Positions 14,290 to 63,829 are shown, counted from the first letter of the whole stretch. The stretch: 63,993 nt of DNA, filler included, from Globobulimina sp. (GCA_003354225.1; 8 parts of 8 records of this genome joined end to end with filler, not necessarily neighbours in it); one strand, 5' to 3'. The notes: a model not told the origin generated them from the letters alone. Numbers and translations: made by a program.

Positions 14290-14370
14290 CTCGAATTGGT
14301 TGGCAAATAGGTCTTCAAAAGAGGTACTCCTATCACGAAGCCCGTCGGTGACACAAAACAACACAAGGTA

Positions 14371-14380
14371 GCTGCCACCA
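14371..14380 (-). promoter_or_regulatory. Primer-binding site, tRNA-Leu-like
   Basis: TGGTGGCAGC lies 1 nt after the LTR-terminal ..GTTACA and is complementary to a ..GCUGCCACCA tRNA 3' end. Confidence 0.65.
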
Positions 14381-14381
14381 C

Positions 14382-34343: not shown

Positions 34344-34562
34344 ATAAATAACGAGTTCACGTTATACAGATTTCATTCTTTCAAACATTTGTCGATCCCA
34401 AAATATTTTTACTTCAAATATTTTCTCGAAAAAAAAACATTCGAGTGTTGACATCTAACCTTGTTAACAACCAAAAGACAAACAAACGTACCTCGAACAA
34501 AGAGACAAACAAACCATCTTAGCATTCATTTTACAGAAACCTCGTGAATTTTCTGATACATA

Positions 34563-37500: not shown

Positions 37501-40162
37501 TCCATAATGCGGAATGGGGCACAGTGTGTGACGATATATATGATGCTCAACTGCAGGTAAACTTTGCGACTGTTGTTTGCAGGCAATTAGGTTATATATC
37601 CGGTACTTTTCACTTAAGTGCTTTTTATGGACAGGGTACAGGTACAATATGGATGGATGATGTCGCATGTACCGGTGCAGAAACACGGCTTGCTGATTGC
37701 GCGTTCGATGGATGGGGTATTCATAATTGCGGACACGGTGAAGATGCTGGCGTTAATTGTGTTGGCACTACATCACCCACAGCATACACAACATCACCAA
37801 CAAAAACCCCAAGTGCAACACCCACAGCATATACAATATCACCTACAAAGACTCCAAGCACATCACCCACCAAACAGCCAACTACATCTCCAACGCAATT
37901 AACTCCAAATCCTACATTAAATCCCAGCAAAACACCCACATCATTGACCAAGTCACCTTCAGATTCTCCCAGCAAAGCTCCTACCACACCGCCACCGACA
38001 AAGCAGTCTGTATGGCTTGATACGACTATGGAGGCGGGCAACAGTCAGAATGGTAATATGTTTGATTTATGTGCAATACAAGAAGACATTGAGATAGTCT
38101 CATTTGACGTACATTGCAATGGTGGGACGGGAACAGCCGCGACTATCGAAGTGTATGTAGCGACTGCACTTGGTACCAGATTTAGTAGTATCGAGAATAC
38201 GGCCAGTTTGTGGACATTGGTGCATCAAGAAACAGTGACCAGTGCGGGTAGCTCCTTTTTGACAGTCTACTCACCATTTAATGTGCCTTCGCCAGTAATA
38301 CCTGTGATGATTATGAATGGTAATTGCAGAGGCTTTTACGTAACGAGAAGTGACAGTGGTTCCCTCTCGTATACTAATGGTGATTCGGGTACAGAAGGGA
38401 GTGTTTATGCTTCCAATGCAGATCTACAGTATCTGACAGGAACTGGCAGAGAGTATGCGTTTGGAAGTGAATATAGCCCCCGTATCTGGAATGGACGCAT
38501 ACATTACCGGAGTGGTTCTGATAAGTTAAGTGGTGACAGTGACAGTGTACTGTACATCTAAATGCATATTTATCATACATATCACAGCCCGACAGCAGAG
38601 CCATCGCGTCCGCCCAGTGCACAGCCAACTGTCCCATCACGTGCACCATCCGCGGCACCCACCACGCCTCCAACGAATGCAGCATCGCGTGCACCAACTC
38701 GTGTTACTGATCAACCATCCAATGCCCCTTCTTTCAGCCCTACGGACGCACCATCCAATGCGCCTACGCAACCACCAACTGATGCGCCATCTGGTACACC
38801 TACCAAAGCACCCTCCAATGCGCCTACACAGCCACCAACCAACGCGCCATCTGGCACACCTACCAAAGCACCCTCCAATGCGCCTACGCAACCACCAACC
38901 GATGCCCCTTCTTCAACCCCTACAAAAGCACCTTCTTCCTCACCGACCCAACCTCCAACCAATGCGCCATCTGGCACACCAACGGACGCACCATCAAATG
39001 CACCGACCCAACCACCAACCGATGCGCCCACTACTTTTCCAACAAATGATCCAACCATTGATCCAACGTTAGATCCAACCCGTGATCCAACCGCAGAGCC
39101 AACGGGTCAAACTGTATGTTTTTATGTGTGTTTTTTATATATGGTATGACAATAATAATTCTTAGGCTTCGCCAACACCGGCACCCACCGATTATCCAAC
39201 ATATGATCCAACCTTCGATCCCACGACAGAGCCCACCCTCAATCCAACCAATAATCCAACACAGCCCACTTCAATTCCCACCATCAATCCAACAATTAAT
39301 CCAACCATCAATCCAACCACGCATCCAACCGAAATGCCCAGTGTTTCCCCAACGCAGCAACCCAGTGCAGGCACATTGACGCCAACCTCCCCGCCGACGT
39401 CCTCTCCGAGTCGTGTGCCAACCCAACCCACTACCTTCCCGACAGTGACACTCTGTGGCAAAGTCACCGATCCTTCGTCGCAGTATTGCAACATTCTCGA
39501 TGTGTATTCGCCATATAAATACCAACCATATACCTGGACTCGCTATATTGCTAATTATGGGGACGGCATTGGTCCAGAATCAACGTACATTTATATCCGA
39601 GCCACCAATATATGTTATGCGCCATATATAAGCATCACCTATGCACCTTACAATACCCTGAGATTGAATATATTCAACCATTACGATCAATTTATTGGAC
39701 AATGTTCCAGCAATACAGAATGTACGTATGCCCAACAAGATTGTATGCGGAACGTTGATTTGGGCATTGATGCCTTACAAAGTGGAGATATGTACATTGT
39801 AAGCATGGCAGGCACTGATTTGGCAAATAATTGTGGTGACAGCCATACTGTGGATGCAGTTGTTTATGTTACTTGTGATTCGATTCCAACGCCGGAACCA
39901 ACGCCGATGCCGACAGATGTAACCAATGCGCCTACCTCCGCCGCGCCGACCGCAGTTACCAAGAATCCCACGCCATCGCCGACGGATTTCACTATTGATG
40001 GTACGGCGTTGTTTGATATATTTATTGTATCCCATTGGAGAAATGACGAGAAATCCTTTTCATTGATATTAGTAACGTTTACCAGTCACTATGTGGGTTT
40101 AGGTTTTAGTGCAATGTTGGAATATCCATTAGGTTTTCCTTTTGCAGATATAAATTCTATAA
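34563..40162 (+). CDS. Large secreted mucin-like protein: beta-sandwich modules, C-type lectin and SRCR domains separated by Pro/Thr/Ser repeats; introns 35576-36448, 38525-38587 and 39114-39165; 3' partial
   Basis: Signal peptide; CTLD ([16 protein letters not shown]); SRCR ([36 protein letters not shown]). All three predicted GT-AG introns restore the reading frame. Confidence 0.8.
35746..36400 (-). pseudogene. Disrupted Tudor + ZZ-like zinc finger gene fragment nested antisense in an 873-nt intron
   Basis: [16 protein letters not shown] (Tudor-like), an in-frame stop, a Lys-rich tract, then frameshifted [17 protein letters not shown]. Confidence 0.5.
38748..39030 (+). repeat. Coding tandem repeat, 60-nt unit ([11 protein letters not shown][D/N]APSGTPTK), about 4.5 copies
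   Basis: Consecutive 60-nt lines from 38761 to 39020 are near-identical. Confidence 0.85.
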
Positions 40163-40262
40163 NNNNNNNNNNNNNNNNNNNNNNNNNNNNNNNNNNNNNN
40201 NNNNNNTTAATTAATTAANNNNNNNNNNNNNNNNNNNNNNNNNNNNNNNNNNNNNNNNNNNN
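40163..40262. other. Artificial contig linker
   Basis: 44 N + TTAATTAATTAA + 44 N. Confidence 0.98.
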
Positions 40263-42477
40263 TTATATTTGCTGCAAATTTTTTGAGGTATTTCGTAGAC
40301 TTTTTTATTATTTTGTCGTGTATTTTTAATAGTTCTTTATTAGGGCCGCCAGTTCTTAGTATTAGGTGTTTATCAATGGTGGCGGTCTCACATTTGGTGT
40401 TGTTTAGGGTGAATACGACCGGTCTATGGTCCATAAACACGGGATGAGTATCGACATGCATTGATTTGATGGTGTTCAATTTATCGGTGATTACATAATC
40501 TATGATGGAGCCACCACTATTTTGGACTCCTTTGGCCAAACAAGTGAGGAATTTGGGGGCAAATTGTGGGTTGGCTATTTTTAGGTTGGTTTTATCAAGC
40601 ATTGCTTTCATATAACGGTAGTGTCCATTCGTGTTATGGTCCATTGTTAGTGATCCCATTCTGGCATTGAAGTCTCCGATGACGTACATATTTTGGCACT
40701 GCGATTTGTAACTGTTTATATCGTCAGTGAGGGAGTTATAGAATTTGAGGCTGCGATCACTTAATTTCGGTTTATATGTTCGCGTATAGTTTATAGCAAT
40801 GTAGGTCGGTTTGGTTTGGTTTCTGATTTTGACGGAGATCCATGCTGTGTTATGGCCTCTTGTTTTTTTTATTAGTTTTATTTTATTTTTCAAGTTGTAT
40901 CTATAATATATTAGGATGCCCCCAACATTTTGCAGGTTATTTGTGGCTATCGGGGCTTTGTGGGCCATCAATTTATAACCAGGAAGTCGCCAATTTGGTC
41001 GATTTCTTGTTCTGGTGTCAATTAGGAGTATTATGTCAAGTTTGTGGTGAGTTATGAGCTGCTGCATGTATGGGTGCATTTGATTTATTTTAGTTTTAGC
41101 GTTTCCATTAATATTCATAAAGCCGATTTTCATGTTTTTTAATTTGATTTGTGTCGATGTTATTGGTTCAATGTTTGGTGCATATATCTGCATAAAAGGA
41201 TATTTTAGGATTATGTCAGGAATGTCATCATCGGATTGCATTGCATTGTTAATGTGTGCCTGCATTACTTTACTTATCAAATAGTTTTTATAATTTCGAA
41301 GTTGTGTGTTTTTAGTGTGGTATTTGTTTATCGAATGTTTATAGATTTGATTTAATGAGATAACTGCATTGTTTTTTTGATTATTTATCCAGTTGTCGCG
41401 ATTTGCGGAGTGTATCTCCATATTTAATCTGTTGTGTGTGCCCTGCCAATGATCCCTAATATCACTTACTTTTTTATTTATCGGGGCAAACCATTTTATG
41501 TGATAATTATTGTTCGCAACTGCTTGTTTTAAAATTACGTCGTTTTCAACATAATTGTTTTTGAGTATGAAGTCATACAAAGCCAAAACTTTCGCTGGAC
41601 TCTTATTGAAAGCATGGAGTTGTTTGTAAACGGTTAGCTCAGAGGTTTCATTGAGATATGGGATCTTTTTAAACCGAACAGTTATATGTGACGGAAAGTG
41701 GTTCACTATGAAGGATTTGATCGGATGATAGCGATGTTGGGGCATACGCACAGTGATCCATCTCAATGATTTATCCATTATGATTTTAATATATCGATAG
41801 ATTTTACGTATTCGATGTTGGTAACGCTCAATGAATCGATAAAGGGACTGTGTGTGTTTATGATCTTTAGTGCTGATCATGTATCCCGTTACACACTCAG
41901 TTTGAATGACATTTGTGTAATGGTTGAAATAGTTATGAATGGAGTAAGTTGTCTTGATTCCGACGTGGAATCTGTTATTTTGCAGCGAGTCTAGTTTAGA
42001 GCGGAATTGCTTTTGCTTACTACTGTTATGTATATGTTTTATTTTGTGAGTGGTTGAAGCAAGAACTGATTTTGTATGTAATTTAAAATAAGGAGAATGG
42101 TTCAGTGCATTGGTAGTGACAATGTTCACTTTATGCAAATCAATGAACGCATTGGCGAGAAAAGAAGAATTAGAATGAAGTAAAAATAAGAAAAAAGTAG
42201 TATATAAAGGTAATAATGTAAGAAAAAAAGAGTTGGTTTTAGGTAGAAATAGGGAAAAAAAGAGGTTTATGGTTAGTGTTTGTAAGAAAAGAGAGGGATT
42301 GGCAGCGTATATAAATAAAGAAAAAAGAGAGCTAATGGTGGTATGGATGTATTTAATTTGAAACAAACATAGGAATAATAATAAAAAATAAAGGTAGGAA
42401 TGCATGGATTTCGGGCGCAAATTGGAATGTTTTATGACGATCGGGCTGTTACAGCCATTTTTGATGCGAACAAACAT
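40263..42477 (-). CDS. LINE ORF2 N-terminal part with APE-type endonuclease (3' partial)
   Basis: GFMNING, DIILLIDT, GGILIYY, IGDFNARMG, SIIDYVI and MDHRPV motifs. Confidence 0.85.
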
Positions 42478-42482
42478 AGGAA

Positions 42483-45400
42483 TTATGGCTCAGAGACGAA
42501 GTCATATTTATCATTATTGTCATTGTTATTGTTGGTGTTGTCGCGGTTATCACTAATTATCTCATCATCCGCGTTCACTACGTCGTCGTCATCATGTTCT
42601 TCTTCGTCATTCTCGCTGTCATCGTTCGAGTCATTATCATTTTGAATGGCGTATTTTTTAATGACTTTGGTGCGAATGCATAGGGTGACGCCTTCATTTT
42701 GTTTAATAAGCAATGATTCCAATGCATTTTCATCCAAAATCAGGTCATTTTGGGCGGAGATCGTCAATACTTTATGGAATAAAAGATTGCCGATGTCGTT
42801 ATTTTGAAATTTTGCCGCGATTTCGTTATGGAATGTCAATCCTAACTGATCCATCGTATTCATCTCGCTCCACACGATCGGCGTACCATTGATTGTCAGG
42901 TCTTTAATGCGAGAAACAGCGAAGGAGTGATAGTAAGTGATTAATGTATGTTCACTGGGCGCATTTCCTAAGCCGGGAATACCTTTAAATCCATCTTCTA
43001 ATTGAGGTCGTATCATTGGGCAACCTTTGCATTTTGACGTTAAATGGCCGCATTTTGATTGGATTGTCGCTTTGTGCAATTTATTGAGGGTCATAGTGAT
43101 TACATTCGCTGTTTTGCCATCTCGGGCCATATCTGATTCAATTTTTGATTTTAATTCTTCCAATTTCGCGTCGAAAGAAATATGATGGATCATAAACGCA
43201 TTTGTTTGCTAATTGTATGTGCATTGCAGACATAGCGATGATGTCTTCATGGTATGTCTCCGTAATATGTACCTCTGTGCCACCTACGATGAATGAGTTT
43301 GATGCCAAGGCTTTGTTCGCATAAAAGTAATTATTATCATGTAAGTCCGCCGCAGGAACACCAGTTAAAAGATAGCGCGGCGTGTTTTTAAATTGGAATT
43401 TGAAGGTGTTGGCATATGAATGCATTTGATATGGATGTGCATAATTTATGACATGTATATCTGGCTCGATTGGCGCAACACGGCTTAGCACATAGTCAAC
43501 TTCCTTGCGATTCAAATATGGCGACAAATGATACAAATCCAAGATGTTGCCACGTAAAAGCGAGTGCTTTGTGGAACAATACCATGCTTTGGCGGTCATG
43601 GCGTTACATTTCATTAATGTCAGTTTTAAGCACCGCGGGTCTGTGATATGGAAGCCTAAGACATCCCAAATGTATCCTAAATCAATGGTGTGTGCCTGGT
43701 AACGATTAAGTGTATCCATGTTATCTAATACGGTTAAGTTGAATATACGTTTTAATTTCTTACGGCATCCAAAATAAACTCCTGTTTTCTTGACAGGAAA
43801 CGCCAACGAATTGCATCCACGCGCATGTCCATAATAGTCGCCATCATGATATTCTGCAACATTGTCGGCTATGGTCACTGATAATGGATAATTGTTGAAT
43901 TTCACATTGTACACTAAAGGTAGCGGCTCATTGATAATGCTGTTGATGTACCCTTGCAACTGCTGGTCAGTCGCAACGTAATTGAAACCGGATCCGGTTT
44001 TCTTGACTCTGCCATGCAATGCGCTGATATACGTCAGGATTCCTTGGGTATCGCCATCTATTCGCTCTAATGAATTATAAAATGATTTATCAGCATAATA
44101 ATAGGAATAAGACGAGGAAGCAAATAGGACTGTTAATGGTGACACTGTGGGTAATAATTCTGCTCTGGTTTTGATGATGTTTGCTTCTTTTAAGGCAGCA
44201 ACAAAATCCTCTTCTTTATGGATCCAGATCCGGTCCGAGATGCGATTATTCATAAAGACTTTGCCGAATACAATGCGAACATGGAAATTCACGCCAATCT
44301 CATCGTGGTATTTGGCTGCATTGGCAATCCATTTGCGAGTGCGGTTAATCTGGCCGTCATAGTATTTACGTACCATTTTATCTGAACGGGACTCTTCGAC
44401 GTAAGCTTTGGTTTTGGTAATGGTTCTGCGGCGATTAAATCTAATGTGCCGTTGATTGAAATCGATTTTTAAATCATCATACTCACTGAAAGATGTTACA
44501 GTGTCTGGCACCGTCTCTGAGGTGCATTTAATTTTAATGGTACCGGCTGAGGCAGGGACATTTTCTATGCCTTTAATATAGGATAAATTCTGGATATCAG
44601 CGCCTGGATTTTGGATGGAGAATAATTTGGTGGTTTTGAGCTGCGGTTTGCCAATATCTAAAAGGGTGGATTCAATATAGTTTCTTTTTAATGGATTCGG
44701 CCGTATATTGCAGGTATCAATAATGCGATTTAATTCTGGCGATTTGGGGAACGGTATCTGTGAGAAATCATCCATTTGCTCATCATCTTCAAACGGGAAA
44801 TCTTCGGCAACTGTGTTATATTTCGTATATTTATTTTCGTTTACGTATACATTTCCAGGTATTTGCTTATGTATATTTACCTTTTTTGTCATCAGCCATA
44901 GAAAAATGTATGGTTTGATTAGATTATGAGGGTATGAGAGGAATGAGGAAGTTGAGAGTGTGGCAAAGAGTGAGTTTGAAAGATGTTTGGTGAAAAACAG
45001 TTTGAAGCACTGAAAGCTTTCTTTTTTGTTAATAATAGTGCGGGAATGCGGCTCTATATAGTATACAAAATAAGGTGTGCTTTTTCCTATATTTATGGAG
45101 GGGTAATTTATCACAATCAATATGCTGCATTTCAACGGATTTAACGTGTTTAAAATAAATGCAGCTGAAATGCATGACATTTCCAAACAAAATGTCATGT
45201 TTTTCAGCTGCAATAACTCATAATCGTATAATAAACACTCATAATCACATAATAATTGATTTGTTATAGACATAAGTCGAATGTATATACATTTCGTAAG
45301 TCGAGTGAATGTACATTTTTTATCATTTTTTAGTGGTTTCTCATAATGAGTGATATCAAAATTGATATTGTTAGTTAGTGGAATGTTGTGATGACAATAA

Positions 45401-45849
45401 TAATAAAAAAACACATAAAAGATACAACACAAAGACGAAAGAAAGATACAAGTATTATTTTCAAACTCATCGGAATGTTTATGAACGATGTTAAGAAATG
45501 TTGTTGATATCGGATATTTACTGATGGGTATGATTTGGTGATTGATTAGCTCGTTCAAAGCGAGTTCTGTATGATGCAATACAGTGTTTGTTGGTTTGTT
45601 GGTGGTGAATTTATCATTCGTTTGAGATATGCATTGGTTTGAACGGAAGAAGTTTATTAGAAAGGAATTTGTCATATTTTGATTGGTTTTTGTATGATAT
45701 GTTATTTTCCGTCGTGGTGTAGACTTTCCAAGTGATTGTTGTTTTGTTTGTGTAGCTCTTCCTTCGTTTTTGGTCCAACCAATGTGTTGAGTTGTTTCAC
45801 AGTGAACGAGACTAATTCTTGCATCGTAATGACACTGTAAATTTCGCAA
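42483..45849 (-). CDS. Putative LINE ORF1 in two overlapping frames (45849-43138 and 43208-42483)
   Basis: 903-aa and 236-aa ORFs lie directly upstream of ORF2 and can be joined by a 64-nt GT-AG intron (43272-43209) or a frameshift. No recognisable domain; true start unclear (ATG 44892 possible). Confidence 0.55.
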
Positions 45850-45968
45850 GGGTTTAGGTTTAGGTATTGTTACAGAAGGGAGGAAGTGAGGAAAGTTTTT
45901 TTCAAGATTTTAATTCAAAGCGAGGTGTTTGTCACATGTTGACATTACGAAAAACAGCAACCAATCAC

Positions 45969-47297
45969 TCAATCAATATCATCCATTATATCATCACCAT
46001 CTTCTTGTTGGTGAATATTAATGCTTTCATCCTCTCTCTTTTGCATTGAATGAATGCCATCAATCAATTCTTGACATTTATTTTTGAAGACATTAATAGT
46101 TTCCTTAAATAAATCAATCACATTTCGATATTGCCCAATACTCTCAATTGAAAAAATAAAATGATTTCTCTTTTTCCTCAATTTAATAAACGGTAAATAT
46201 GTTTTATTATCGTCCTTATCCACAATACATTTACCAAACAATTTATTCACTTTTTCGTCCATAATACACGCTCGACACAAACTGCACTCTCTTTCCCGAG
46301 CTACAAAAATCTTACAATCTTCGATATCAAACACATTCTTCGGACATAACTGTTTTAAATACATAGCATCCTCTCGGACCACTTTATAATTCTCATTCCA
46401 ATGCAATTCAATATGCGGCAATAACTTATAATAGGCAGTGCCGACTGGACTAAACTTCGCGTGATCTCTGCCAATGCCTCTGATGGCTCTCATGGATATT
46501 TCTATACATTGTCCAGGTCGTAATTTCGCGATAATTATATCATCAAAAACCATTTTAATGGGCGGATGATTGTGTTTCTTCAACAACTCCATCTGTCCCG
46601 GTTGTGCTATCCATTCGATATCACGCGATCTCACTGGTTTGCAACGCAAGTAATGGTGCAAGGATTTGCTATAATTGATATTATAAAAACACTTAAAAAC
46701 AAACCTATGGAATTGATGTATCTTTTATGTGGCGGATCCTTTTCATTCGCCTGCGGATTTGCTTTGCACTCAACATATAATTTAAAAATTAATGTGTTTG
46801 CAGGGTCCTGTCCTTTTTCATATCGATTGTTGGGATCTGAGGCATCAATGAAGTCAAACAAACGCGGATCCGCTGCAATGGGAATGAGACCCAATCGATG
46901 GCATAATACTTCATCTTGGAGAATAGAGTTATTTTGCAAGACACAGCAGTCTTCAATGGCCATTGTAGACACTTCGGATAATAATATGCGACGGAACGCA
47001 TTTGCTATCGAGGTGTCAATGCCAATCATGTCAAATGTCATTGAATTGTTTTCAATGTCAATGTCTGTGATCTCAATTGATAAATCACGCACTAGTTTTT
47101 GTATGGACCACGAGTTATCAATACCTAGTCCTATAAATGCATCTGGGTCGCTTATCCCTGACGTCTGTGTACGTTTATTTGATTGTAATATTCATAATAG
47201 AAACACTTTTGGGTGTACGTACGTGTTCGGGTGCTTCTTTTTCAATGAATACATTATCTCTGATTTCTTTCAAGTGTTCTGGTAGTTCACTTGCCAT
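45969..47297 (-). CDS. RPC40: RNA polymerase I/III subunit AC40; exons 47297-47223, 47164-46705 and 46633-45969
   Basis: IANAFRRILLSEV, DEVLCHRLGLIPI, IAKLRPGQ, GIGRDHAKFSPV and HFIFSIESIG; 58-nt and 71-nt GT-AG introns restore the frame. Confidence 0.95.
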
Positions 47298-48178: not shown

Positions 48179-48278
48179 NNNNNNNNNNNNNNNNNNNNNN
48201 NNNNNNNNNNNNNNNNNNNNNNTTAATTAATTAANNNNNNNNNNNNNNNNNNNNNNNNNNNNNNNNNNNNNNNNNNNN
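48179..48278. other. Artificial contig linker
   Basis: 44 N + TTAATTAATTAA + 44 N. Confidence 0.98.
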
Positions 48279-48391
48279 TTACATTGTTATTGGTTGACAA
48301 AGAAAGAGAAACCAATAACAAAATATACAAACTTGATATAACTAATAACATACATCAACATACAAATAACTAACATAATATAATAAAATAT
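48279..48391 (-). repeat. Split direct repeat B2 (copy of B1 at 48719-48831)
   Basis: 113 nt with one mismatch to 48719-48831. Confidence 0.92.
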
Positions 48392-48452
48392 TTAAAACTA
48401 TAAAATATTTAAAACTATAAAATATAAATAAAAAAGGAAGAGGGAGGGCGGG

Positions 48453-48765
48453 AAACGAAAAAACTTTTAACTGATTCTAAAAAACTTGAAGAAGACTTAA
48501 AAATAAACAAACAAATATAGAATAAGATAATATAATTAATTATGAATCTCTCCCATAAAACCCTTGTTCCACGAATACAACATTGTGTTTTAGATCGAAA
48601 TAAAATTAATATGGAGTGAGATCACAGAGGAAATGAATAAGCGAATAAATCGAATGATGGGAACTTGTGTGTAATGGTAACTCGTTATCGGTTGGGAAAA
48701 TTTCATTGAAATTTAATATTACATTGTTATTGGTTGACAAAGAAAGAGAAACCAATAACAAAATA
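48453..48765 (-). repeat. Split direct repeat A2 (copy of A1 at 55880-56191)
   Basis: About 312 nt with roughly 10 differences counted by eye. It shares 47 nt with repeat B. Confidence 0.92.
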
Positions 48766-48848
48766 TACAAACTTGATATAACTAATAACATACATCAACA
48801 TACAAATAACTAACATACTATAATAAAATATCCCTTCCGTGTAATACA

Positions 48849-50176
48849 TTAATTGTTTAATAATCCTAATTTTGTTTTAGAGTTATACTTATTCATAAAA
48901 TAATTCTCTTCTTCTTCATCAAAATCAAATTTGTCAATAACATCAAATTTGTCAATATACTTTGAATTAAAATAAATATGACATAACTTATTCATTTCCC
49001 CTTCCGTGTGATTTACATAAATATAAAATGAGTCTTTTAAAAACCATCTGCCGACCCATGCAATTAAACCTTTATCTACACCACATCGAGTTAATTGTGA
49101 TGCAAATCCTTTGCGTAAACCATGGGGTTTACCTAAACGAGAAGCTTGAAAAAAGCCGACATATTTAATCAATTTCTGATATATAATTCGAAATTTGTCA
49201 GTGGTCATCGGTACTTTTTTATGTTGCAATAAAAATGATTTCTTATTCCAAATATAACATTTTGGAAATTTCTTGGATAAACTGGATAAAGTGTGATATA
49301 AATCAAATAACATTAAAGCTGGATCAATATTATGATTTGATCTGCCAATCAGTACAAAGGCTGAATGTCCTGTATTGCGCATCTTGCTATTTTGAATATT
49401 AATTTGTATGCTATGAAGAGTCTGTGAATTAAGTGAAATATTATCAGGAATAATGGTAATCTCTCCTGATATTGATATACTTTTATGAAAAATTGTAATA
49501 TCACATTTGCGAATACCATATGAGTTATTTTTCTTGTCAATCGGATGTAGGACCTCACCAATGCGCATACCTGTGACTGCCATAATATTTACGCCCGTTA
49601 ATGCCATTCTTATCGGCATACAAATTTTGTAAAATAATATCTCTTCCTTCACAATAAGAAAGAATTTTGATTTTTGTCTAAAAATAATTGAATTATGATT
49701 GGATTTGCAATATAATAAATCATTTGTTACTTTATTATTAAATCTGATTAAATGTTGTTTAGTAAATGGTAATGCTGCATTATTCGGATTTGATTTATTC
49801 TGTTTCTTGCAATGACTGATAATGCTCATTAAAGCAGGATTTTCTGACCAAGATGTTGGAGTTAATGCTAATTTATTATAATGATCAATTGCTGCTAATT
49901 TGTATCTAATCGTATTGTAACAATTTGGTTTTGTCAAAATCATCGCCCAATGAACTATACAAATAATAAGATTGATATCTGGAGTGGGAAACGTTAGTAT
50001 TTCGGACTTAGAAAATCCTAAATTCGTCAATGTGTTACAATAAATATAAAAATTAGATTCATATGTTTCTGATGTGGATAATTTAATGCCTCTCTTTAAT
50101 GTTTTGTTGTAACCAATGGCATGAAGAGGTAGACGGTCCCATATTTGATGTGTATATATATGATTTTTGCAACGAC
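48849..50176 (-). CDS. Tyrosine recombinase (frame open to ~50234 without ATG; candidate splice acceptor 50178-50177)
   Basis: Catalytic R-HxxR-W-Y set: GMRIGEV, HGLRKG, VGRW and FYIYV. The N-terminal STSETY motif lies upstream of the listed TTG start. Confidence 0.9.
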
Positions 50177-50255
50177 CTATAATGATATAAAAAGCAATAA
50201 ATTGTGATTTAAAAAATGTACAAATGATATAAAATTACATGTGATATGAGTTGAA

Positions 50256-52141
50256 TTATAATAATGACAAATCTGGATATATAAACGGTGTTGGTTTGCT
50301 ATCAATTTTTATGCGTGATTCATGACAAAATTGTACAAAATCTTGTATTCCAAAACGAGATAATGCATCTGATAAAGTATTATCCTTTGATTTAATATAT
50401 ACAATTTTTGCTTTTATTTTATGTTCAAAGCAAAACCAACACGTCCAACGTACACAATCCATTAAGAAAATGTCGTTTGTGTTTTTGCTGATAAATATAC
50501 CTTCACATGTTTTATTATCGCATCTTATGATTAATGAACAACTTTCAATGAAGAATGATTTAAATGTATTTAATGCTGCCACAATGGCTAAAGCTTCAAA
50601 ATGTGCTATATGCTGTTCTTGTGAATGAATTGTAATCTTATTATCATCCAAGAATTTATGATAGAAATTTAAATATGTACTGGGGACCTGATCGAATGCC
50701 CATTTACCTTCAAAAAATGCACCAATACCTGGCTGCCATTTAGGTTTTTCACCATTGGTTGCTCCATCCGTATATAGTAAGAATTCTTTTTTGTTGCGAG
50801 TTCCAATTACATCGTAGACACTGACTCTGTCACATTTATAAGCGTATAATACCCAGAATTTCGCATCTTTGATATCATTGTCATCAAAGTTAAGTAAATG
50901 TGATTCCTCACCATATTCACGTTTATGTAAAGTTAGTTTCATGCGAAATCGACGTAGGAAGGCAGTACCAGGCCACATTAAGGCTGCCATCCATGTTAAT
51001 GATCCTAATAAGGATTCAAATCTATCACTCATAAGCCTGTGATAACAAATAATGATTATTAATAATAGTAATACCTTCTTCTTTTTAATCGGTCCAGGTC
51101 CCACTGTCATGTCTGAAGAATCATATATTAGGCCACAGATTTCCATGATCCATGACAATAACTTCCTTTTTTCAACCTTCTCAATGTAGCCGCATGAATG
51201 TAAGAATTGAAAGAAAAGATTCATTATATTTGTTTCTCTGCGTCTATTTGACGTTAAATCCGATTTAATAAAACCAACATGGTCATCAATATAAACTGCG
51301 TTGATAATTAATTCATTGGATAATAGAAATGATTTAATCCATACTTGGAAGGCTGCAATAATAGTTTCACCGAATTCTTGTGTGTGTTTCGATGCTGATT
51401 TTGATCCGTAAATATCTCTCGTGTCACAAAATTGAACATTGAAGAATTTGTAACCCATAAAGTGCCAGTCTTCCTTTGCAATGCCTAACTGACGAAAAGC
51501 ATCACTTCCATCTGTCTTGAACATCAAACAGAATTTGCCTGCTCTAATCATGAAATTGCAGAATGATTTGCATAAAGGAACATTCATTTTGTAATCAATT
51601 GGATGTGTTAATTCATTGATGTTATATGTCCAATACGAGGAATATGACGCATGACGACATATTCTGGCTTTACTATATCGCTGCGTCCACAGTGTTAATG
51701 GACCTCCAGTGATTTTATCGACAGCTACGATCTGTATAAAATTCTCAATTAAGGAATTATGTCCCAATAAGATGCCTGCTGGACCTACTTGTCCTGCTTC
51801 AACAGCACCAGCAAAGTTGGCACCTATCTCTATCTTTTCTAAAATTGTAAAGTCTTTCATGATTTTGACCTGTTTATTCATTGGTAAACCATCGGGATTA
51901 ATGCCTAACTTCCATCCATGTTTTACATTGTGTATGATTTGATATACTAAGTTCTTCAAAGTGCGATTGCTGCGTGGGATGTGATTGTATAATTGATTGA
52001 AACTGTGAAGAATGAATTCTTTGCATGGCGATTGTAAATATTTAGGCAATTGATATCGAAATTGATTTAGAGCTAATTGGAGACGTTTACGTACTATGTC
52101 CCATAAAAATAAATTCCAGATTGTCGGATTAGTACTCAATT
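50256..52141 (-). CDS. Reverse transcriptase - RNase H (DIRS-type)
   Basis: RT motifs KTDGSDAFRQ, YGSKSA and VYIDD; RNase H motifs LYTDGA, IAHFEALAI, IRCDN and NTLSDALSR. Confidence 0.93.
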
Positions 52142-52978
52142 CTTTACAATCACATGTAATTTATATCAGTATATGCAAATTGTGAATCAATGAGAGATAA
52201 ATGAATGTAAAATATAAACACGTTAGATATACACAAAAAGTTCTTGTTTTTTCAATGTTACTGGTTACACATTGATGGATAAAGAACGATACCCAAATTC
52301 GTGATGATTCATTATTATAATAAAACGATTATTGTAATAACAATGGAGCAGGAATCATACCCCAAGTATTAAATGGTATACAGATAATACCAAATCTGTT
52401 TTAATGTTAATGCATGAATCTAAAAGTAAATATAGTAAAATAATGATAAAAATAACGATATTTGCATGAGACATCATATGTGTACGGAAACATATGTGTC
52501 TTTGTAATAAATTGTGTGATATCTATATAGGATCATTGTGTGGTAATAGTGACTTTGTGACTGTCACGAATGATGATATTGAGAGTTATAATCCTTATAT
52601 GTATCATAAATCAATATAAAGCACCATAAAATACTCGTTCTTCTGATAAAAATACAGGTGCGCTCTCAAAAACATTTGAGTGACTCTAAAAATTTTTTGC
52701 TTGACGTGTAAGTTTCGGCGATCAAGAATGAGAAATATAAAATTTAAACTAATTGACAAATATTATTGTAATATAATACACAATGTTAAATACATCAATT
52801 TATAATACGAGGATATGTGATAGAAATATACAAATTCATTCAATGCATCATATAATAATGTATTGAGTAATCAAAATCAAGCATAGATTTATCAAAATAA
52901 AGTATAGGATATAAACATAAGGGATATTAAAATAAATGTAAATATATGTGAATAAAATTAAATCTGTGATGTTAATGT

Positions 52979-55807
52979 CTATCGACCACCATATCCATGA
53001 ACGTTTCCACGACTCAAACTCTTGCAATTCTCACTTGTGTGTTCATTGACGACATAGCAATGTCTACACATGTGATGGTAATCGCATTTTGCATGGTCAT
53101 TGGCAAAATAACAATTACCTCTTTCATTATGTCTACAAATATGTAGACTTAACTCAGGACCACCATATAAACGCCCATTCTCATTTTTGTATACGGCTAA
53201 TTTCTTTGCGTTGGCAGGTCGACCACGAAGACCTAAGGGAATGTGCGCATCATTGGCTTTCCCTCTCTTTGGAATCGGAGCTGAACTGAAATCTCGGCGA
53301 TAAGTATTGCGTCTTTGTTGTAACTGTGGTCTTTGCGAAATCGGTGGTTGTAATTGATGCGGTCTTTGAGCATAATGTTGTTGTGTTTGAGGTGGATTTG
53401 GGTTAAATCCATTGTTCTGAAATGCACATTGTAGTCTCGGCTGATTACGATAATTCTGAGTATTTTGTTGGTGGTTGTTTCGATAACGAGATCCTCGATA
53501 TCTTCCACCATTGTAGCCACCTCGAAATGTGTTGTTTCTTTGATTGTTACGCCTCCGATTATACGTATTTACTCTGTTTGCGTTGTAGTTGTTGTTATCA
53601 GTGTTGGAGGAAGTGTTGCCATCATAGTTGGCCCTTTTGTTGGCGACGTTTGCTTTGCTGATTTTGTTTACTGCGTTGTTGAAAGTTCGCGTTTCAACGG
53701 TGTTCTCATGTTCTTTTGCCATGATTTCCATTTTCCACGTATTGTAAAGGAATTTGCTGTTCATTGCCATCAATACGACGCTGCCACTTTCACGAAATGC
53801 TTTCCTTCTTTGTAATAATAAATAATTGATCGCTTTCATGCCACTCTCTCCACGTAAATAATGCCGTAAATTGTTGTCAATGAAACGACTGAATTCCTTC
53901 CATTGAATCGCTTGAATGTATAAATAAATGCTAATTTTGATGGATTTGATCGTTGTGCCCCGTTTCTTGTGTTCATCAGAGAGTGTATTGATGGCATCGC
54001 CTATCATTCGAACGAATTTGTACGGAGCATCTTCTTGTTTCAGAAACGATTTAATGCACGAATCGATGTTAAAATGTGATACGCTCCAATTTAATTCGCC
54101 ACATAATGCGAGATATCTCAATAAACTCATTACGTCACTGCCTCCCTCAGTGCATAAGTCAAAAAATGCAATCCTTGCAAATATTTTCTTGGCATTTGAT
54201 ACATTTCCCGTCGATTCTTTGTCTAAATCTGCCATTTCTTTCTTGTATTTCTCATACAAAATCATATCTGAATACGTATAATGATTAATAAATGTAATGA
54301 TGTGATGAATAAAAATGAATAATGAGATGTAACATATTTGCTGAGTCATTATGATAACACAAAATACTGCAAACTCACAGTATGTACAAACCAGTGACGC
54401 AGTCAAACGATGACTGAAAGAGAGACAGAAAAAGCACAACGAGCACAACAACGTAAACATACTGTTCATGAGATATTTTTGAATGTCTTTCTCCATTACT
54501 TTGCCGCCACTGTATTTCTTGACAATTTCTTCTGAATGAATTTGATCAATTTGGTCTTCAATACCTGGATGAAAGAAATCTAAACCAGGCGCTAAGGCCG
54601 CTTTATTCGACGAATTGACTGCATTTCGGACTTCATTCTCAATGTTACTCACATTGTTAACCAATGTGGTCGAATGATGCTCTGCCGCTTTGTCCACATT
54701 TGCTTCATAATCTTTTTTCTTTTGCGCACGTATTTTGGCCTCCAATTCTTGTTTTTGTTTCTTACGATTTAATCTTTGTAAAACACTCAGTGAAGAATTG
54801 GAATTGTCATCGTCGTGTTCGACGTCACCTAAATCTGATAATTGCCTTTGCCATGCTACGATATCTACGGAATTCTCCTTCATTTCAGTGTCAGTGTCGA
54901 CACCTTCATCGTGTTCAGCGCGCGAAGACTCTGTATCTTTCTTATTCGAATCTGATGTGTCATTATCTTTCATGTCCGCAATTAATTTGTTCGGATCTAA
55001 GATCGCCTCTTTATATGCATCAAAAGTGTCGGCTGCGTTAATATTTTCTTGTAATTTCTGGATCCAATCTTCTAAGCCTTTCCAGTTAATTTCAAATGTA
55101 TTGATTTTATATTGAACTTTGGATTTATGTAAACCAAAATCAATCCCTTCATACATCTCGAGAGCCGGAGTGTTGTTAATGGTAATCTTTCGATCACCAT
55201 TTGTTAGCCATTGATTCCATGATTTAATGGCAATGCGTGCTACAAATGATGCTAACTCAATGAATTCCGCAGTCCCCGATGGATTTGGATGAGATGCGGA
55301 TCCTTTTAATGTTTTTAATAATGTGTCAATGAGATTTAATGTGGGATAATCGAGAGTTTCTTCCAAGAAAATCTCTAATTTCGCGTCAAAAACGTTGAGA
55401 ACGTTTGCTTTAATCATTTCAATCATGCCCCAACATTTTATTTGTCCCATTTCAGGAACGACTCGGCCATTCGCATCGGATTGACCCCATAAAGGATCTT
55501 CCGGATCATCCACGATTAATGTTCCTTGCACGCATTTTCGTAATGTCCTGTAATCCGTGGGAACACCTCCTGTGACTATTTTGTATGCAATTTTCTCAAT
55601 TTGCTCCTCTCTCTTCTTAAATTCGTTGAATTTAATGAGTAATTCAATGTCATCATAGAATTCCAAGAGCGCATCATAAATAGATGTATTTGGTTCTGCT
55701 TGTGCTGGAGCATGAGGTAAACGAATAGATGCAACGATACTATTCGCAATGACTCTTTTCATATTGGTGCTGCGAAGAGCATTCCCAATATTGATTGATA
55801 CCGACAT
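52979..55807 (-). CDS. gag: Gag-like ORF1 with C-terminal Cys/His finger; contains a predicted in-frame 195-nt intron (54462-54268)
   Basis: Coiled coil, N/R/Q-rich tract and terminal CRHNERGNC..C..HHMCRHC..H....C finger typical of DIRS/Ngaro ORF1. Confidence 0.85.
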   Translation of the reverse strand: MSVSINIGNALRSTNMKRVIANSIVASIRLPHAPAQAEPNTSIYDALLEFYDDIELLIKFNEFKKREEQIEKIAYKIVTGGVPTDYRTLRKCVQGTLIVDDPEDPLWGQSDANGRVVPEMGQIKCWGMIEMIKANVLNVFDAKLEIFLEETLDYPTLNLIDTLLKTLKGSASHPNPSGTAEFIELASFVARIAIKSWNQWLTNGDRKITINNTPALEMYEGIDFGLHKSKVQYKINTFEINWKGLEDWIQKLQENINAADTFDAYKEAILDPNKLIADMKDNDTSDSNKKDTESSRAEHDEGVDTDTEMKENSVDIVAWQRQLSDLGDVEHDDDNSNSSLSVLQRLNRKKQKQELEAKIRAQKKKDYEANVDKAAEHHSTTLVNNVSNIENEVRNAVNSSNKAALAPGLDFFHPGIEDQIDQIHSEEIVKKYSGGKVMEKDIQKYLMNSMFTLLCSLCFFCLSFSHRLTASLVCTYCEFAVFCVIIMTQQICYISLFIFIHHIITFINHYTYSDMILYEKYKKEMADLDKESTGNVSNAKKIFARIAFFDLCTEGGSDVMSLLRYLALCGELNWSVSHFNIDSCIKSFLKQEDAPYKFVRMIGDAINTLSDEHKKRGTTIKSIKISIYLYIQAIQWKEFSRFIDNNLRHYLRGESGMKAINYLLLQRRKAFRESGSVVLMAMNSKFLYNTWKMEIMAKEHENTVETRTFNNAVNKISKANVANKRANYDGNTSSNTDNNNYNANRVNTYNRRRNNQRNNTFRGGYNGGRYRGSRYRNNHQQNTQNYRNQPRLQCAFQNNGFNPNPPQTQQHYAQRPHQLQPPISQRPQLQQRRNTYRRDFSSAPIPKRGKANDAHIPLGLRGRPANAKKLAVYKNENGRLYGGPELSLHICRHNERGNCYFANDHAKCDYHHMCRHCYVVNEHTSENCKSLSRGNVHGYGGR

Positions 55808-55879
55808 CACTTGATGTAAACTTGTTTCTTGTTTTGTTTGTTTCTTGTTTTGTTTTGTTTGTTTGCTTACTTATTGAAA

Positions 55880-56191
55880 AAACGAAAAACTTTTAACTGA
55901 TTCTAAAAAACTTGAAAAAGACTTAAATATAAACAAACAAATATATAATAATATAATATGATTAATTATGAATCTCTCCCATAAAACCCTTGTTCCACGA
56001 ATACAACATTGTGTTTTAGATCGAAATAAAATTAATATGAAGTGAGATCACTGAGGAAATGAATAAGCGAATAAATCTAATGATGGGAACTCGTGTGTAA
56101 TGGTAACTCGTTATCGGTTGGGAAAATTTCATTGAAATTTAATATTACATTGTTATTGGTTGACAAAGAAAGAGAAACCAATAACAAAATA
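55880..56191 (-). repeat. Split direct repeat A1 (5' terminal repeat)
   Basis: Matches 48453-48765. Confidence 0.92.
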
Positions 56192-56291
56192 NNNNNNNNN
56201 NNNNNNNNNNNNNNNNNNNNNNNNNNNNNNNNNNNTTAATTAATTAANNNNNNNNNNNNNNNNNNNNNNNNNNNNNNNNNNNNNNNNNNNN
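56192..56291. other. Artificial contig linker
   Basis: 44 N + TTAATTAATTAA + 44 N. Confidence 0.98.
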
Positions 56292-59687: not shown

Positions 59688-61078
59688 TTAAAAACATTTT
59701 CGATGTACAATCTGCGCACCAATTTCATCATATTCATCTTTAAACACCCACGATTTTCCAAATGAGCACATCGACGCTAAAAGAGAACCGCCGATCCAAA
59801 CACTATACTTCCGATCTGCGGGGACACGCACTTTAACCTTTGGCCAAATCGGTAGATGTTTGCAAATCACATTCACCACATCTTTATATAACATGTTGCT
59901 ACAATTATGCCTCAAATATCCATCCACCAGAATATCATCTTTACTCTTCATTATTTTATAGATTTCATTCTCTAATCGCTTACCAAATCCACCAAACATA
60001 GTATTGCCACCACTTAACACAATATTACTGCATAAAACACTAAAATCTGTCTCGCATTTCGTCATTGAGCTATACAATAATTTATGTATTCCATCAGCTT
60101 CCTCTCCAAGTCCAACCATCCACGGTTTAAATAATATTTCCGTGCATCGAAAGCGTTCGCTGCTCATAGTTATAACATGCCCGTCTGGCAAAACGTACAT
60201 TTTATCAATCTGACTATGATCAGCCTCATATTGTTCCAGTTCATATTCATAATCCTCTGCTATAAAACCATATTTTTCTTTAATATCTTGATAAGTTAAA
60301 CTATATATGATTGCATCAATATGTTTATCTGTTGATCCACTCGCAATATTTGCATGTCCTCACATCACAGTGTCTCAACTTATAATATCTTCTTTCATTC
60401 ATTATCGTTCTATCATTGTCACCAATATTCTTTCGCAGATAATTTGTTACATCATAGCCACCAATGTTCAATGTGGAAATTGCGTATTTTAAAGCATGTC
60501 CTTCATAAATTGGAACACAAAAAGTTGAGCACCCGCTCTCTAATACAATTCCATTGCGTCTTCCAGCGGCGAATAAGGATAAAAGAGAAGTCATTGATAG
60601 ATACATTCCCGGAACATTAAATTGTTCAAACATAATTTCTGCAGTTTTTTCTCTGTTTGGTCTTGGGTTTAATGGCGACTCTGTTAACAATACATAAAGT
60701 TCTTCAGGTTGGCAGTGTAATTCCTTGGTGTTTGGAGAAATGTGTATACAACGTATTTGAAATAAAATATAAAAATACGTTATAAAGTGTATGGTGCCAT
60801 ATTTTTTCCATATCATTCCAATCCATGACAATCCCATTTTTTATAGGCCACTTGTTGAGCAAAACACCTCTTTTAGATTGTGCTTCATCGCCAACATAGG
60901 CATCTTTTTGGGCCATACCAACCATAGTATCTTTATGCCGAGCTCTACCAACAATTGATGGAAACACTGCCCGCGGTGCATCATCCCCTCCATATCCTGC
61001 TTTTATCATACAACTTCCATTATCAATCACTAATTGGTGTGACCAGTCTTCAGAATACCAGCAATCAGAATCTGTCAT
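59688..61078 (-). CDS. Divergent actin / actin-related protein; introns 60778-60724 and probably 60379-60301
   Basis: [66 protein letters not shown] and IVHRKCF. Confidence 0.9.
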
Positions 61079-61121: not shown

Positions 61122-63829
61122 ATGTCATCGTTTTTAAACCTTCTAATCATTGCATACATTAAATGTATATCATACGCTTATCAACGAGATATTAATTACG
61201 CAATGAAATTCTTTGCGAATGATACTGACAGATTTCGAACAAAACCAGACGAATTGTTATCATTTGGAAACGAACTAATGCATAATTTTACGGAGAACAA
61301 ATCAGGTATCATGTTTAGCGGAGTATTTACAAATAATATGGTCTTACAAAGAGAACCCCATTATGCTGCTGTATATGGAACATGCGACACATCAAATATT
61401 ACAATAACTCTATCTATTAAAAACGAAGTAAACCACACAATTACAAATCATTCAACAATAACAATGCCAAACGGTGATTGGAAAATAGTATTACCTCAAA
61501 ACTACCCAAACGGTGGCAATTATACACTAACTGTACATTGCAATGAATGCGTTACAACTCCCAGAACATCAACAATATACAATATAACTTTTGGTGATGT
61601 TTACGTATGCTCCGGTCAATCAAACATGAATTTAGAAGTTGATTTTACATTTAATGCGCAGTCTACATACAATAATATCAGTGAATTAAACAAATATTTG
61701 AACATTCGATTTTACACTAAACGAGCATATGGTATGTCTGATAATATTCCACCATTTGTAATTCCATACGAAACAGATGTAAGTAATGGTAAATATGAAT
61801 GGCACACAGCCAATATTAACAATATTGAAAGAGTCAGATTGTTTTCAGCAACATGTTGGTACACTGCACAATCATTGATTGACAAATATAATATGAGTCA
61901 GATTAACTTTGGTTTAATATTAAGCGCCGTGGATGGCTCACAAATTGAAGCGTGGATCATGAACAATAGCATCAATGCTGTTTGTGATGAAAGAAAATGT
62001 GATTGTCCCGGAACAAACTGTGGTGCATTATATAATGGAATGATTGCTCCATTTATTAATATGAGTATAAAGGCCATCCTCTGGTATCAGGGTGAAAATA
62101 ATATTCGTCAACAGGAGATAGATACTGCTCACATTGCAGATTCATCATATTCATGTTTGCAGAAATTGTTAATAAATCAATATCGAGCACATTGGAATGA
62201 TTCGTATTTACCATTTGGTATTGTTCAGATAGCTGCTGGATGTTCCGAAGGTTTCTGGCAACAAATGCCATATTTTAGGCATTCGCAAACTGGCAATTAT
62301 GGTATTGTGCCAAATAAAGAAATGTTGAATGTGTTTATGGCACAAGCTTATGATACTGGTTTGTTAAATATTGTATATAATAGTTTTTGATTTGTTGCAT
62401 TTTCAATGTTTATTTGAAGGTGATCCATGGAACAGATATGCTAATGACAGAGACTTATATCCAGCACCGTATGATTGGAACACTACCAAATGGTTTTTAG
62501 GCAGTTTTCATCCTCGCTCCAAGCTATATGTCGGACGCAGACTGGCCATGAATATAAATAAGTTTGTTTACCACAATGATGGAATATGGAATGGGCCGTT
62601 GATCAAAAGTTGCAAATTGGATGTCTCCAAAGCTATAATTACAGTTAACTTTCATAGCAATATGTTGTATGATGAAGAGATTGTTATACAACCATTGGAT
62701 TTATGGTACAACCAATCATTGGTAGAAAACGTTAAATATTGGTCTGCAATAAAATTATTGTTTGATGGAACATGGATTGGTTTGGATGGCATGGATGTAC
62801 TAACTATTGGCGACAACGGCTACCGCATAATTGTGAATATCTCAAATATTATGCATAATACAAGTGATATGTTGGGTATTAATGGTATAAGTTATGCATG
62901 GTCTGATTATCCGTGTTGTGGTGATTTGGATCGTACGCAGCACCCATGTCCGATGAATATGTGTCCGATAATTACATCGAAATCAAGGTTACCAGCCATA
63001 CCGTTCCAAGCTAGAATTGAGGATGGGAAATGCCAATGTTTTGCGCCACAAAAATGTTAAATATATGTTTATGTTTTTATCTTGAACTATTTGTTTAAAT
63101 GTTTATTTTGAAGGTGATGGCTCAGAATATGTGTTGCCTGGAATGTACATTGACTTTGCTCCAAACACAAACACGTCCACAACGCTGGTTGTTGCAACAG
63201 GAAATGCTGAACTGCCGACATTTATTTGTGTGCTGATGACGGGTTATGTTATTCATTCAAATATAAATGACGCTGCAGGTCAATATGAAAGGATTGACGG
63301 AGATCTATTGTATTGGCGGAGAATGGATGTTGAGCCGAATAAAAATATATTTTATGATACAGCCTCAGGTTTTTGGCATATTGGATCAATGGAAGATATG
63401 GAGCATAATTTAGTTTGTGAAGTGCAAAATGTTTCATCTCCAATGGGATGTGATAAATGGATTGGATATAATTCAAATGAGGTGTATCATGTCAGTGATA
63501 TGGTTGTGAGTGATGGTAAATGCATAGATATTGATGTTAAAACTTTGGATGAGCAGAATGAGGAAAAATCAGATAATATTTTTGATGATAAGATTAAAGT
63601 GACATTGTTGACTATTTTGGGCGAATGTTTCTGTGTATTTATGTTATGGATTTATTGCAAAAGGAAAAGTGTAGAGAGTGGTAAAAGACGTGGACAGCTG
63701 CAGGATCTAACAAGCGATCAAAATAATGAAATTGATATACAGCAACTGAATCCAATGGAGATTAACCAAGTTTTGGATCATGGGCCGATGATCATGAGCG
63801 AGGAAAACCAACTGGTACACAGTGACTAA
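61122..63829 (+). CDS. Sialate O-acetylesterase (SGNH/SASA) with C-terminal TM anchor; introns 62359-62419 and 63056-63113
   Basis: Signal peptide, [29 protein letters not shown] and FHPRSK. Both phase-1 GT-AG introns restore the frame. TM segment [20 protein letters not shown]. Confidence 0.87.

Follow-up and report, generated by a model that had tools for sequence, protein, structure and literature searches.

How retrotransposons of the DIRS order express their downstream open reading frames (ORFs) is poorly understood, and the known answers are overlapping frames and frameshifts. Here we describe an element of this order in a stretch of Globobulimina sp. DNA (GCA_003354225.1; 63,993 nucleotides (nt) with filler, eight records joined end to end that are not necessarily neighbours in the genome), which we call the window. 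By structural tests, and leaving its placement in a named clade apart, the element is an intact Ngaro-like tyrosine-recombinase (YR) retrotransposon. In the excerpts consulted, Ngaro elements are described as having split direct repeats arranged A1-[ORFs]-B1-A2-B2, the order gag, reverse transcriptase/RNase H (RT/RH), YR, and no methyltransferase, protease or DDE integrase (PMC7192593, PMC3783388, PMC13465315, PMC8547959). The same excerpts describe frameshifted or same-frame YR ORFs and no splicing, and the portion of PMC3783388 consulted has 0 mentions of 'intron' or 'splic'. More broadly, the portions of full-text literature searched (including PMC3783388, PMC7192593, PMC13465315, PMC8547959, PMC3212892 and PMC6431247, with Poulter-group reviews and supplements outside this scope) report no introns in DIRS, Ngaro or PAT elements and no expression of their RT or YR by splicing.

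Like Ngaro elements as those excerpts present them, the window element has split direct repeats, the same gene order and no methyltransferase, protease or DDE integrase. Unlike them, it has an RT too divergent for the Pfam family RVT_1, which misses the polymerase in 11 of 11 clade members in the RT alignment (the RNase H part alone is seen in 8 of 11); its ORFs do not overlap but have spacers between them, neither its RT nor its YR frame has an ATG at its start, and its gag appears to carry an intron (four in one relative). DIRS1 and PAT share the order and the enzymes, but they reach YR through long overlapping pol/YR frames, according to the part of PMC3783388 consulted, whereas this lineage has no overlaps and has acceptor-like sites instead.

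The sequence supports reading RT/RH and YR as exons that lack an ATG and start at phase-1 3' splice sites conserved in two clades, and we lean, with modest confidence, towards RT and YR being expressed by splicing onto a gag-derived exon. In the proposed model, a full-length transcript would be alternatively spliced, pairing a phase-1 gag donor (in the simplest case A/GTATGT at 54462; a slash marks the splice point) with any one of three acceptors: TTCAG/, which is close by, would yield Gag, the far and weaker AAAG/ would yield a fusion of the Gag N-terminal part to RT/RH, and TATAG/ would yield a fusion of the same part to YR, while unspliced RNA would be the template for reverse transcription. 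Introns would persist in genomic copies because it is the unspliced RNA that is reverse-transcribed. We infer the splicing itself, the choice of donor, how much of each product is made and whatever function the common N-terminal part may have. The parts of the element on which this model draws are as follows.

54463-55807, minus strand: gag exon 1, an orphan N-terminal domain (ATG 55807, 448 codons plus 1 base, open frame)
54268-54462, minus strand: 195-nt segment of gag (GTATGT...TTCAG, phase 1, a multiple of three, stop-free), probably a retained spliceosomal intron
52979-54267, minus strand: gag exon 2 (Asn/Arg-rich region, C-terminal Cys/His motif, stop 52979-52981)
52144-52978, minus strand: AT-rich, non-coding gag-RT spacer with stops in all frames, indel-rich or unalignable in diverged copies
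52142-52143, minus strand: proposed RT/RH 3' splice site GTAAAG/ (AAAG/; G 52142, phase 1, the frame's first AG)
50256-52141, minus strand: RT/RH exon (stop 50256-50258; no ATG before frame codon 94; ten relatives at 29-48%)
50177-50178, minus strand: proposed YR 3' splice site TTATAG/ (TATAG/; G 50177, phase 1, the frame's first AG)
48849-50176, minus strand: tyrosine recombinase exon (stop 48849-48851; Phage_integrase match and YR alignment)

The original prediction, made from the window sequence alone, had named the donor at 54462 and the acceptors at 54268, 52142 and 50177, all in phase 1, and we found every coordinate and phase to be correct on the minus strand. The three stop-to-stop frames on this strand are gag (55870-52979, with its ATG at 55807 and its stop at 52979-52981), RT/RH (52160-50256) and YR (50234-48849); as had been claimed, neither of the latter overlaps gag, whose stop lies at 52979. 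RT/RH and YR are in the same reading frame with two TAA stops between them (50177-50258). In the RT alignment, no in-frame ATG occurs in the RT frame until codon 94, past the conserved N-terminal region and an NGW motif, and in the YR alignment the first ATG of the YR frame follows the conserved W..LP and S.E.Y region; both alignments agree with the earlier claim that neither frame has an ATG ahead of its conserved N-terminal region. The gag-RT spacer at 52144-52978 would be intronic in an RT mRNA.

Relatives of the element and their gag introns

Scanning metagenome contigs once with the RT alignment gave 12 loci (L001-L012), and the profile scan of genome contigs and viral contigs with the same alignment gave no relatives. 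L001-L003 (34-40% identical) share a clade with the window element, L004-L009 (23-27%) make up a second AT-rich clade, and L010-L012 are GC-rich and more distant. At the protein level the RT frame has ten relatives with 29-48% identity, and more distant elements were linked by tblastn; the window RT is homologous to L006 and L007, and the L006 ORF passes the RVT_1 cut-off at 31.7 bits. Wherever the layout of these relatives is visible, it consists of gag with a Cys/His-motif end, a spacer, RT/RH, a second spacer and YR. By sequence, the element belongs to a divergent lineage that is also found on AT-rich metagenome contigs.

The strongest evidence that points to splicing comes from the gag introns of the relatives. 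The L006 gag (1-2637) lies in five fragments in four frames, and four GT..AG introns, all in phase 1 and none a multiple of three in length, join these fragments into one 693-codon frame that ends at a natural stop.

L006 354-409: gag intron, 56 nt
L006 653-704: gag intron, 52 nt
L006 1098-1482: gag intron, 385 nt
L006 2020-2080: gag intron, 61 nt

The donors of these introns are GTATGT in three cases and GTTAAGT in one, and the acceptor is ACAG/ in 4 of 4; GTATGT, the donor of three introns that restore the L006 ORF, is also the donor in the window gag. In its C-terminal half, the joined L006 product aligns with the gag of L009, and this alignment spans the last junction (22% identity over 370 residues, E 1e-9). 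The L006 RT starts at TACACAG/ and its YR at TATACAG/, two codons after a stop, such that ACAG is common to all six sites in the same phase. In L009, gag has a strong donor, AAG/GTAAGT with its G at 2091, and an acceptor, CTTAAG/ with its G at 2510; the two are in phase 1 and lie just ahead of the C-terminal domain, and the position of this intron matches that of the intron in the window.

A retrotransposon that keeps four introns in gag, as L006 does, is unusual in itself. Elsewhere in the L009 gag, the frame changes within about 60 nt (1916-1982), where an indel, a decayed copy or a frameshift site is possible; we looked for a small GT..AG intron at this change (about 1916-1980) and found none.

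Conserved start sites of the RT/RH and YR frames

We compared the starts of the RT and YR frames in two ways. In the homologous-position test, which was guided by homology rather than blind and covered the two AT-rich clades, a phase-1 YAG is present in all eight RT frames compared (window, L001-L003, L005-L007 and L009) and in all eight YR frames compared (window, L002-L004 and L006-L009), at positions that agree to within one codon. Exactly 33 codons separate the RT site from a conserved LP/PP motif downstream, both in the window and in L001. The homologous sites mostly have an in-frame stop 1-6 codons upstream, no conserved ATG, and a long AG-free tract before them, and in the window, L001 and L002 there is no ATG ahead of the conserved RT start. 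Conservation in related elements, which the original prediction had proposed as a check, stands for acceptor position and phase (RT 8/8, YR 8/8); no alignment of Gag with that of the relatives spans the window intron. The second rule was blind and took, in every RT or YR frame read from stop to stop, the AG that comes first. Phase 1 was found in 12 of 13 frames (P 0.0016, with the AG background measured at 0.50).

RT and YR are in one frame in five of the eight elements in which both are seen (window, L002, L003, L004 and L009). A single TAA separates RT from YR in L002 (2487-2592) and the corresponding pair in L003 is at 3524-3605, making read-through conceivable in some members. In the GC-rich L010 (226-2957), the RT and YR frames abut or overlap, GATGAA(TGA)ACTCAG/ precedes both, and the first AG is in phase 1 in both, making it the second element in which one motif stands before the two frames. 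One protein relative, P0006 (809 aa), joins RT to YR; we rejected it as a fusion, since its internal deletions and Cys/Leu-rich bridge are those commonly seen when a gene model has been forced across a spacer.

Proposed acceptor sites in the window

Within the window element, the AG-free gaps that end at the RT and YR sites are 101 and 96 nt long and rank 4 and 5 of 348. Joining donor 54462 to the three acceptors would give the codons AAT, AAA and AGT, and no stop would be created. Each of the two far sites has a copy of the motif TCACAATTT upstream.

52177-52185, minus strand: TCACAATTT motif, 35-43 nt upstream of the RT acceptor
50199-50207, minus strand: TCACAATTT motif, 22-30 nt upstream of the YR acceptor

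The earlier observation of TCACAATTT ahead of both acceptors is borne out (22-43 nt away). The motif is not enriched in the window, which holds 4 copies as compared to 3.0 expected; only its placement is notable.

As a reference for the host, we used seven introns elsewhere in the window that were inferred from frame continuity.

46634-46704: inferred host intron
17290-17345: inferred host intron
1111-1163: inferred host intron
32780-32872: inferred host intron
62359-62419: inferred host intron
63056-63113: inferred host intron
about 60725-60779: inferred host intron

These introns are 53-93 nt long and of mixed phases, and 3 of 7 end in AAG, in line with the claim that AAG acceptors occur in host introns. 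Host donors are variable (GTTTGT, GTGAGG, GTACGT, GTATAT, GTTAAA, GTATTT).

A probable intron in the window gag

The 195-nt segment that interrupts the window gag begins at the donor A/GTATGT (G at 54462, phase 1) and ends at the acceptor ATTCAG/ (G at 54268). It had been described as T-rich, stop-free, in phase 1 and a multiple of three in length, and each of these properties was confirmed: it is 45.6% T and 21.5% A, as compared to about 25% T (24-25%) and about 37% A in both gag exons, and the switch in composition falls exactly at GTATGT and at CAG. The AG-free zone before the acceptor is 73 nt long (rank 11 of 348 in the element). Across genomic copies, the read depth of the segment is like that of its flanks, indicating that it is not a private insertion of this copy. 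In one diverged genomic copy, both edges align while the interior at 54283-54454 is skipped (joint 54282-54455), which is the behaviour of a fast-evolving intron interior. Judged by these sequence features, the segment is probably a retained spliceosomal intron.

The gag introns of the relatives do not share the open, multiple-of-three property: those of L006 are 56, 52, 385 and 61 nt long, and that of L009 is 420 nt long and contains stops. The openness of the window segment is either selected, in that unspliced RNA would encode a full Gag or avoid premature termination, or a sign that the segment is coding. A Gag with a hydrophobic insert, made from unspliced RNA, is possible, but we take it as unsupported because the introns of the relatives are not open.

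The Gag protein itself is an orphan in our searches. Its N-terminal 448 residues gave 0 matches among 1.84 billion representative proteins, residues 400-942 gave none at E 0.001 or better in a 5.8-billion-protein collection, and no Pfam family matched the window gag. BLASTP of the window Gag against the gag of L003, L006, L007 and L009 gave a best value of only E 0.053, a weak likeness of its Cys/His end to the L003 gag end. An AlphaFold model of Gag residues 1-330, made with no alignment supplied, has a mean predicted local distance difference test score of 37, too low to be of use.

Choice of donor and alternative explanations

Several observations weigh against splicing onto a gag exon. The case is built on DNA only: the sole sequencing run with the element, X1, looks like genomic DNA and carries 0.97 of the element's sampled words, and runs X2 and X3 of the same sample carry next to none. 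The X1 contigs reveal a multi-copy family of mixed age (187 pieces, 26 at 99% identity at least and 115 at less than 90%), and the predicted splice junctions that would mark processed copies are absent among the X1-contig joints listed (15 of 26). Phase agreement is also weaker than it appears, since AG is in phase 1 in 451 of 905 cases (50%) in these frames and GT in 57 of 122 (47%) in gag. Because phase 1 is the commonest phase for AG, the chance agreement of two acceptors with the donor within the window is about 1 in 4, and the 1 in 9 given by the original prediction was too favourable. When the blind rule was extended to all loci of the AT-rich clades, 13 of 16 frames were in phase 1 (P about 0.011 at p = 0.5, uncorrected for relatedness), with L004 YR and L005 RT failing and L008 YR passing among the additions. 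With the GC-rich L010-L012 included, the count became 15 of 20 (P about 0.021 at p = 0.5, likewise uncorrected for relatedness); here L010 RT and YR pass, and L011 RT and L012 YR fail. The phase-1 AGs of L004 YR, L005 RT and L007 RT were chosen by homology, not blindly. Internal initiation is possible in L003, where the RT frame opens with ATGs (MTM), and in L002 and L003, where ATGs are close to the YR start. The pyrimidine tract of the RT acceptor is poor (0.44), and at 2321 and 4286 nt the proposed introns exceed the 53-93-nt host introns inferred in the window by a factor of 25-80. Splices of 2.3 kb and 4.3 kb would be rare because they are so much longer, which would suit enzymes needed in low amounts and is also a ground for doubt.

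A further point against the model as first drawn is that gag has other phase-1 donors, at 53034, 53118, 54765, 54564 and 55740. It is unlikely, in our judgement, that the same acceptors are served by one of these instead of 54462. Under this explanation, a GT at the end of gag, either CAA/GTGAGA (G 53034, phase 1, 18 codons before the gag stop) or GAG/GTAATT at 53118, would produce a nearly full-length, Gag-Pol-like Gag-RT fusion, while the early ATA/GTATCG at 55740 would contribute 22 codons only, as in avian retrovirus env. These GTs are in phase 1 with a fair consensus, L006 and L009 have a phase-1 GTATTT about 17-18 codons before the gag stop, and a Gag-Pol-type fusion is the usual retroelement solution. 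However, the gag-end GTs are not at homologous positions, those of L006 and L009 come from a conserved Cys-Ile-Cys codon string, and L003 is without a good donor at its gag end. Among the phase-1 gag donors, 54462 scores best and is the only one tied to a recognisable intron.

The end of RT does not offer a substitute. We found no conserved donor there, and YR does not appear to be fed from the RT end as a general feature, because the last 41 RT codons are without a phase-1 GT in 5 of 10 elements. A short intron, a multiple of three in length, that would remove the stops between RT and YR was considered and rejected for want of a usable phase-1 donor. The claim that Gag, RT/RH and YR come from one donor and three acceptors is partly supported: the RT/RH and YR frames look like ATG-less phase-1 exons and the gag introns of the relatives are all in phase 1, but the other phase-1 GTs in gag weaken the case for a single donor. 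Targeting of proteins to particles by the 448-residue N-terminal part, which the original prediction had raised, is conjectural. We tentatively take 54462 as the shared donor for all three acceptors. For the three well-resolved elements, the simplest model would be that the last gag donor, in the window the only one, picks among three acceptors.

About as unlikely as the use of another donor, in our view, is that RT and YR are made without splicing, by non-AUG initiation, reinitiation, internal entry or read-through of the stops from RT to YR, with the phase-1 AGs being a coincidence of codon usage. This would fit the presence of AG in phase 1 in half of all cases, the shared frame of RT and YR in five of eight elements with one TAA between them in L002, the ATGs at the L003 RT start, and the great length of the proposed introns for this host. 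It fits poorly with the two in-frame stops between RT and YR in the window and with the spacer of about 836 nt before RT, which has stops in all frames. Nor does it account for an acceptor position that shifts by no more than one codon among elements with only 23-40% identity and that has stops directly ahead of it, or for the ACAG/ motif of L006, which also marks the introns needed to restore gag.

The 195-nt segment could also be coding, a Cys/Phe-rich, hydrophobic and possibly membrane-associated insert in Gag, although we regard this as quite improbable. In its favour, and against an intron, the segment is both open and a multiple of three: only 638 of 20,000 shuffles (3.2%) are stop-free, and together with the 1 in 3 chance for its length this makes an event of about 1% by chance. 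In contrast, the change in composition is sharp and falls exactly at GTATGT and CAG, GTATGT is the donor of three L006 introns that restore the ORF, the interior is unalignable in a diverged copy whose edges align, and the L009 intron at the analogous place contains stops. The weakest alternative, that the acceptors receive a spliced leader that supplies the start codon to a trans-spliced polycistronic transcript, would explain acceptor-like sites directly ahead of ATG-less frames, but we consider it very improbable, as there is no sign of a spliced leader, the window's host genes have ordinary cis-introns, and a leader leaves unexplained why the phase-1 rule is common to the cis-introns inside gag.

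Taken together, these data are most consistent with splicing of RT and YR onto a gag-derived exon. A broader version, in which the whole lineage uses a retrovirus-style strategy, is possible and we propose it tentatively: if introns and ORF starts are all in phase 1, any gag donor would fit any gag, RT/RH or YR exon, and three fusions to the Gag N-terminal part could be made.

Comparison with known spliced retroelements

In avian leukosis/sarcoma virus, the gag AUG and a few codons are spliced onto env, and the foamy virus pol is also made from a subgenomic RNA. The proposed expression of the window element would resemble retroviral subgenomic mRNAs in that one RNA is both genome and precursor, a gag donor is joined to downstream acceptors, and the upstream exon provides the start codon. 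Unlike in retroviruses, the shared exon would be 448 codons long, RT rather than env would be made in this way, and the gag intron looks constitutive.

Among retrotransposons, copia and BARE make a gag-only spliced RNA and Ogre has an intron between its ORFs. Spliced RNAs are also described for BARE and for Cer1 of C. elegans in the excerpts consulted (PMC3735527, PMC10309623). Like copia, BARE, Ogre and Cer1, the window element keeps splice sites and would have to export unspliced genomic RNA; in those four, unlike in the proposed model, splicing takes out pol or links two ORFs. We know of no spliced LTR (long terminal repeat) retrotransposon in which RT and the integrating enzyme are each fused, by alternative splicing, to an N-terminal exon of Gag. 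Penelope-like elements have genomic copies that keep spliceosomal introns, as the window element appears to do, but they have another class of RT and another integration enzyme, and their introns are not used for ORF choice.

If the splicing model is true, it would represent an independent origin of the retroviral subgenomic-mRNA strategy, in elements without LTRs or a DDE integrase, and retroelements with retained spliceosomal introns, of which gag here has as many as four, would gain a second clear class. It would also raise the question of how unspliced RNA is kept for replication: the replicating RNA would have to avoid being spliced at as many as six sites, the number in L006, and dedicated export or packaging of intron-containing RNA would be implied in elements without a known accessory protein. 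For annotation, ORF- or ATG-based methods and Pfam RVT_1 miss or truncate these genes, and domain-based transposon annotation would miss the elements.

Structure and class of the element

The complete element lies between two assembly gaps, at about 48182-48278 and 56192-56290, which consist of N runs and a TTAATTAATTAA linker.

48279-56191, minus strand: complete element, flanked by two assembly gaps
55885-56184, minus strand: direct repeat A1 (terminal, element 5' end; 97% identical to 48459-48758; the gap begins at 56192)
48719-48831, minus strand: direct repeat B1 (113 nt, 99% identical to 48279-48391)
48459-48758, minus strand: direct repeat A2 (a 300-nt copy of 55885-56184, 97%)
48279-48391, minus strand: direct repeat B2 (99% identical to 48719-48831; adjoins the gap at 48278)

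The split direct repeats A1-[gag, RT/RH, YR]-B1-A2-B2 are thus present, with outer ends that abut the gaps and true termini and target site hidden by them. Pfam searches of the window ORFs gave weak matches only: RT_RNaseH at E 0.0014, below the Pfam cut-off, and Phage_integrase for YR at E 3.1e-5 (24.2 bits, with a cut-off of 27.1). RVT_1 did not match the RT/RH ORF, and no DDE integrase or protease family was found by Pfam in the window ORFs and no methyltransferase family in these ORFs or in the members of the RT alignment. The HGLR motif and the C-terminal Tyr region of YR are readable in its ORF. A PDB profile search matched the RNase H part only of the window RT (8r0s_A, E 8e-4), and the YIDD and AFRQL motifs are invariant in the RT alignment. 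In this alignment, the RT frames end at a common conserved motif and a stop, and the RT/RH frame stops just past RNase H in 10 of 11 members; P0006 alone continues, into YR sequence. Rfam gave 0 matches over the whole element, and a tandem-repeat search of the window gave nothing relevant to it. In L003, the gag-RT spacer (880-1060) has three tandem units of about 58 nt, identified by eye; the window spacer has no such array.

Neighbouring sequence in the window

Other mobile elements appear to be present in the window. On the minus strand, a 2003-codon frame at 8380-14391 has CCHC zinc knuckles and an aspartic-protease-like ALADTGSG, and is probably the gag-pro part of a retroelement of the LTR type that is not related to the one described here. 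Long frames (760, 241 and 923 codons) are found at 40207-45909, also on the minus strand and beside an assembly gap; the first of these resembles a long interspersed nuclear element (endonuclease/RT), and the region around them is transposon-rich. On the plus strand, 34557-40218 encodes Pro/Thr/Ser-rich repeat proteins with a scavenger-receptor-cysteine-rich-like stretch, and 24/36-nt tandem repeats are present at 38705-39064.

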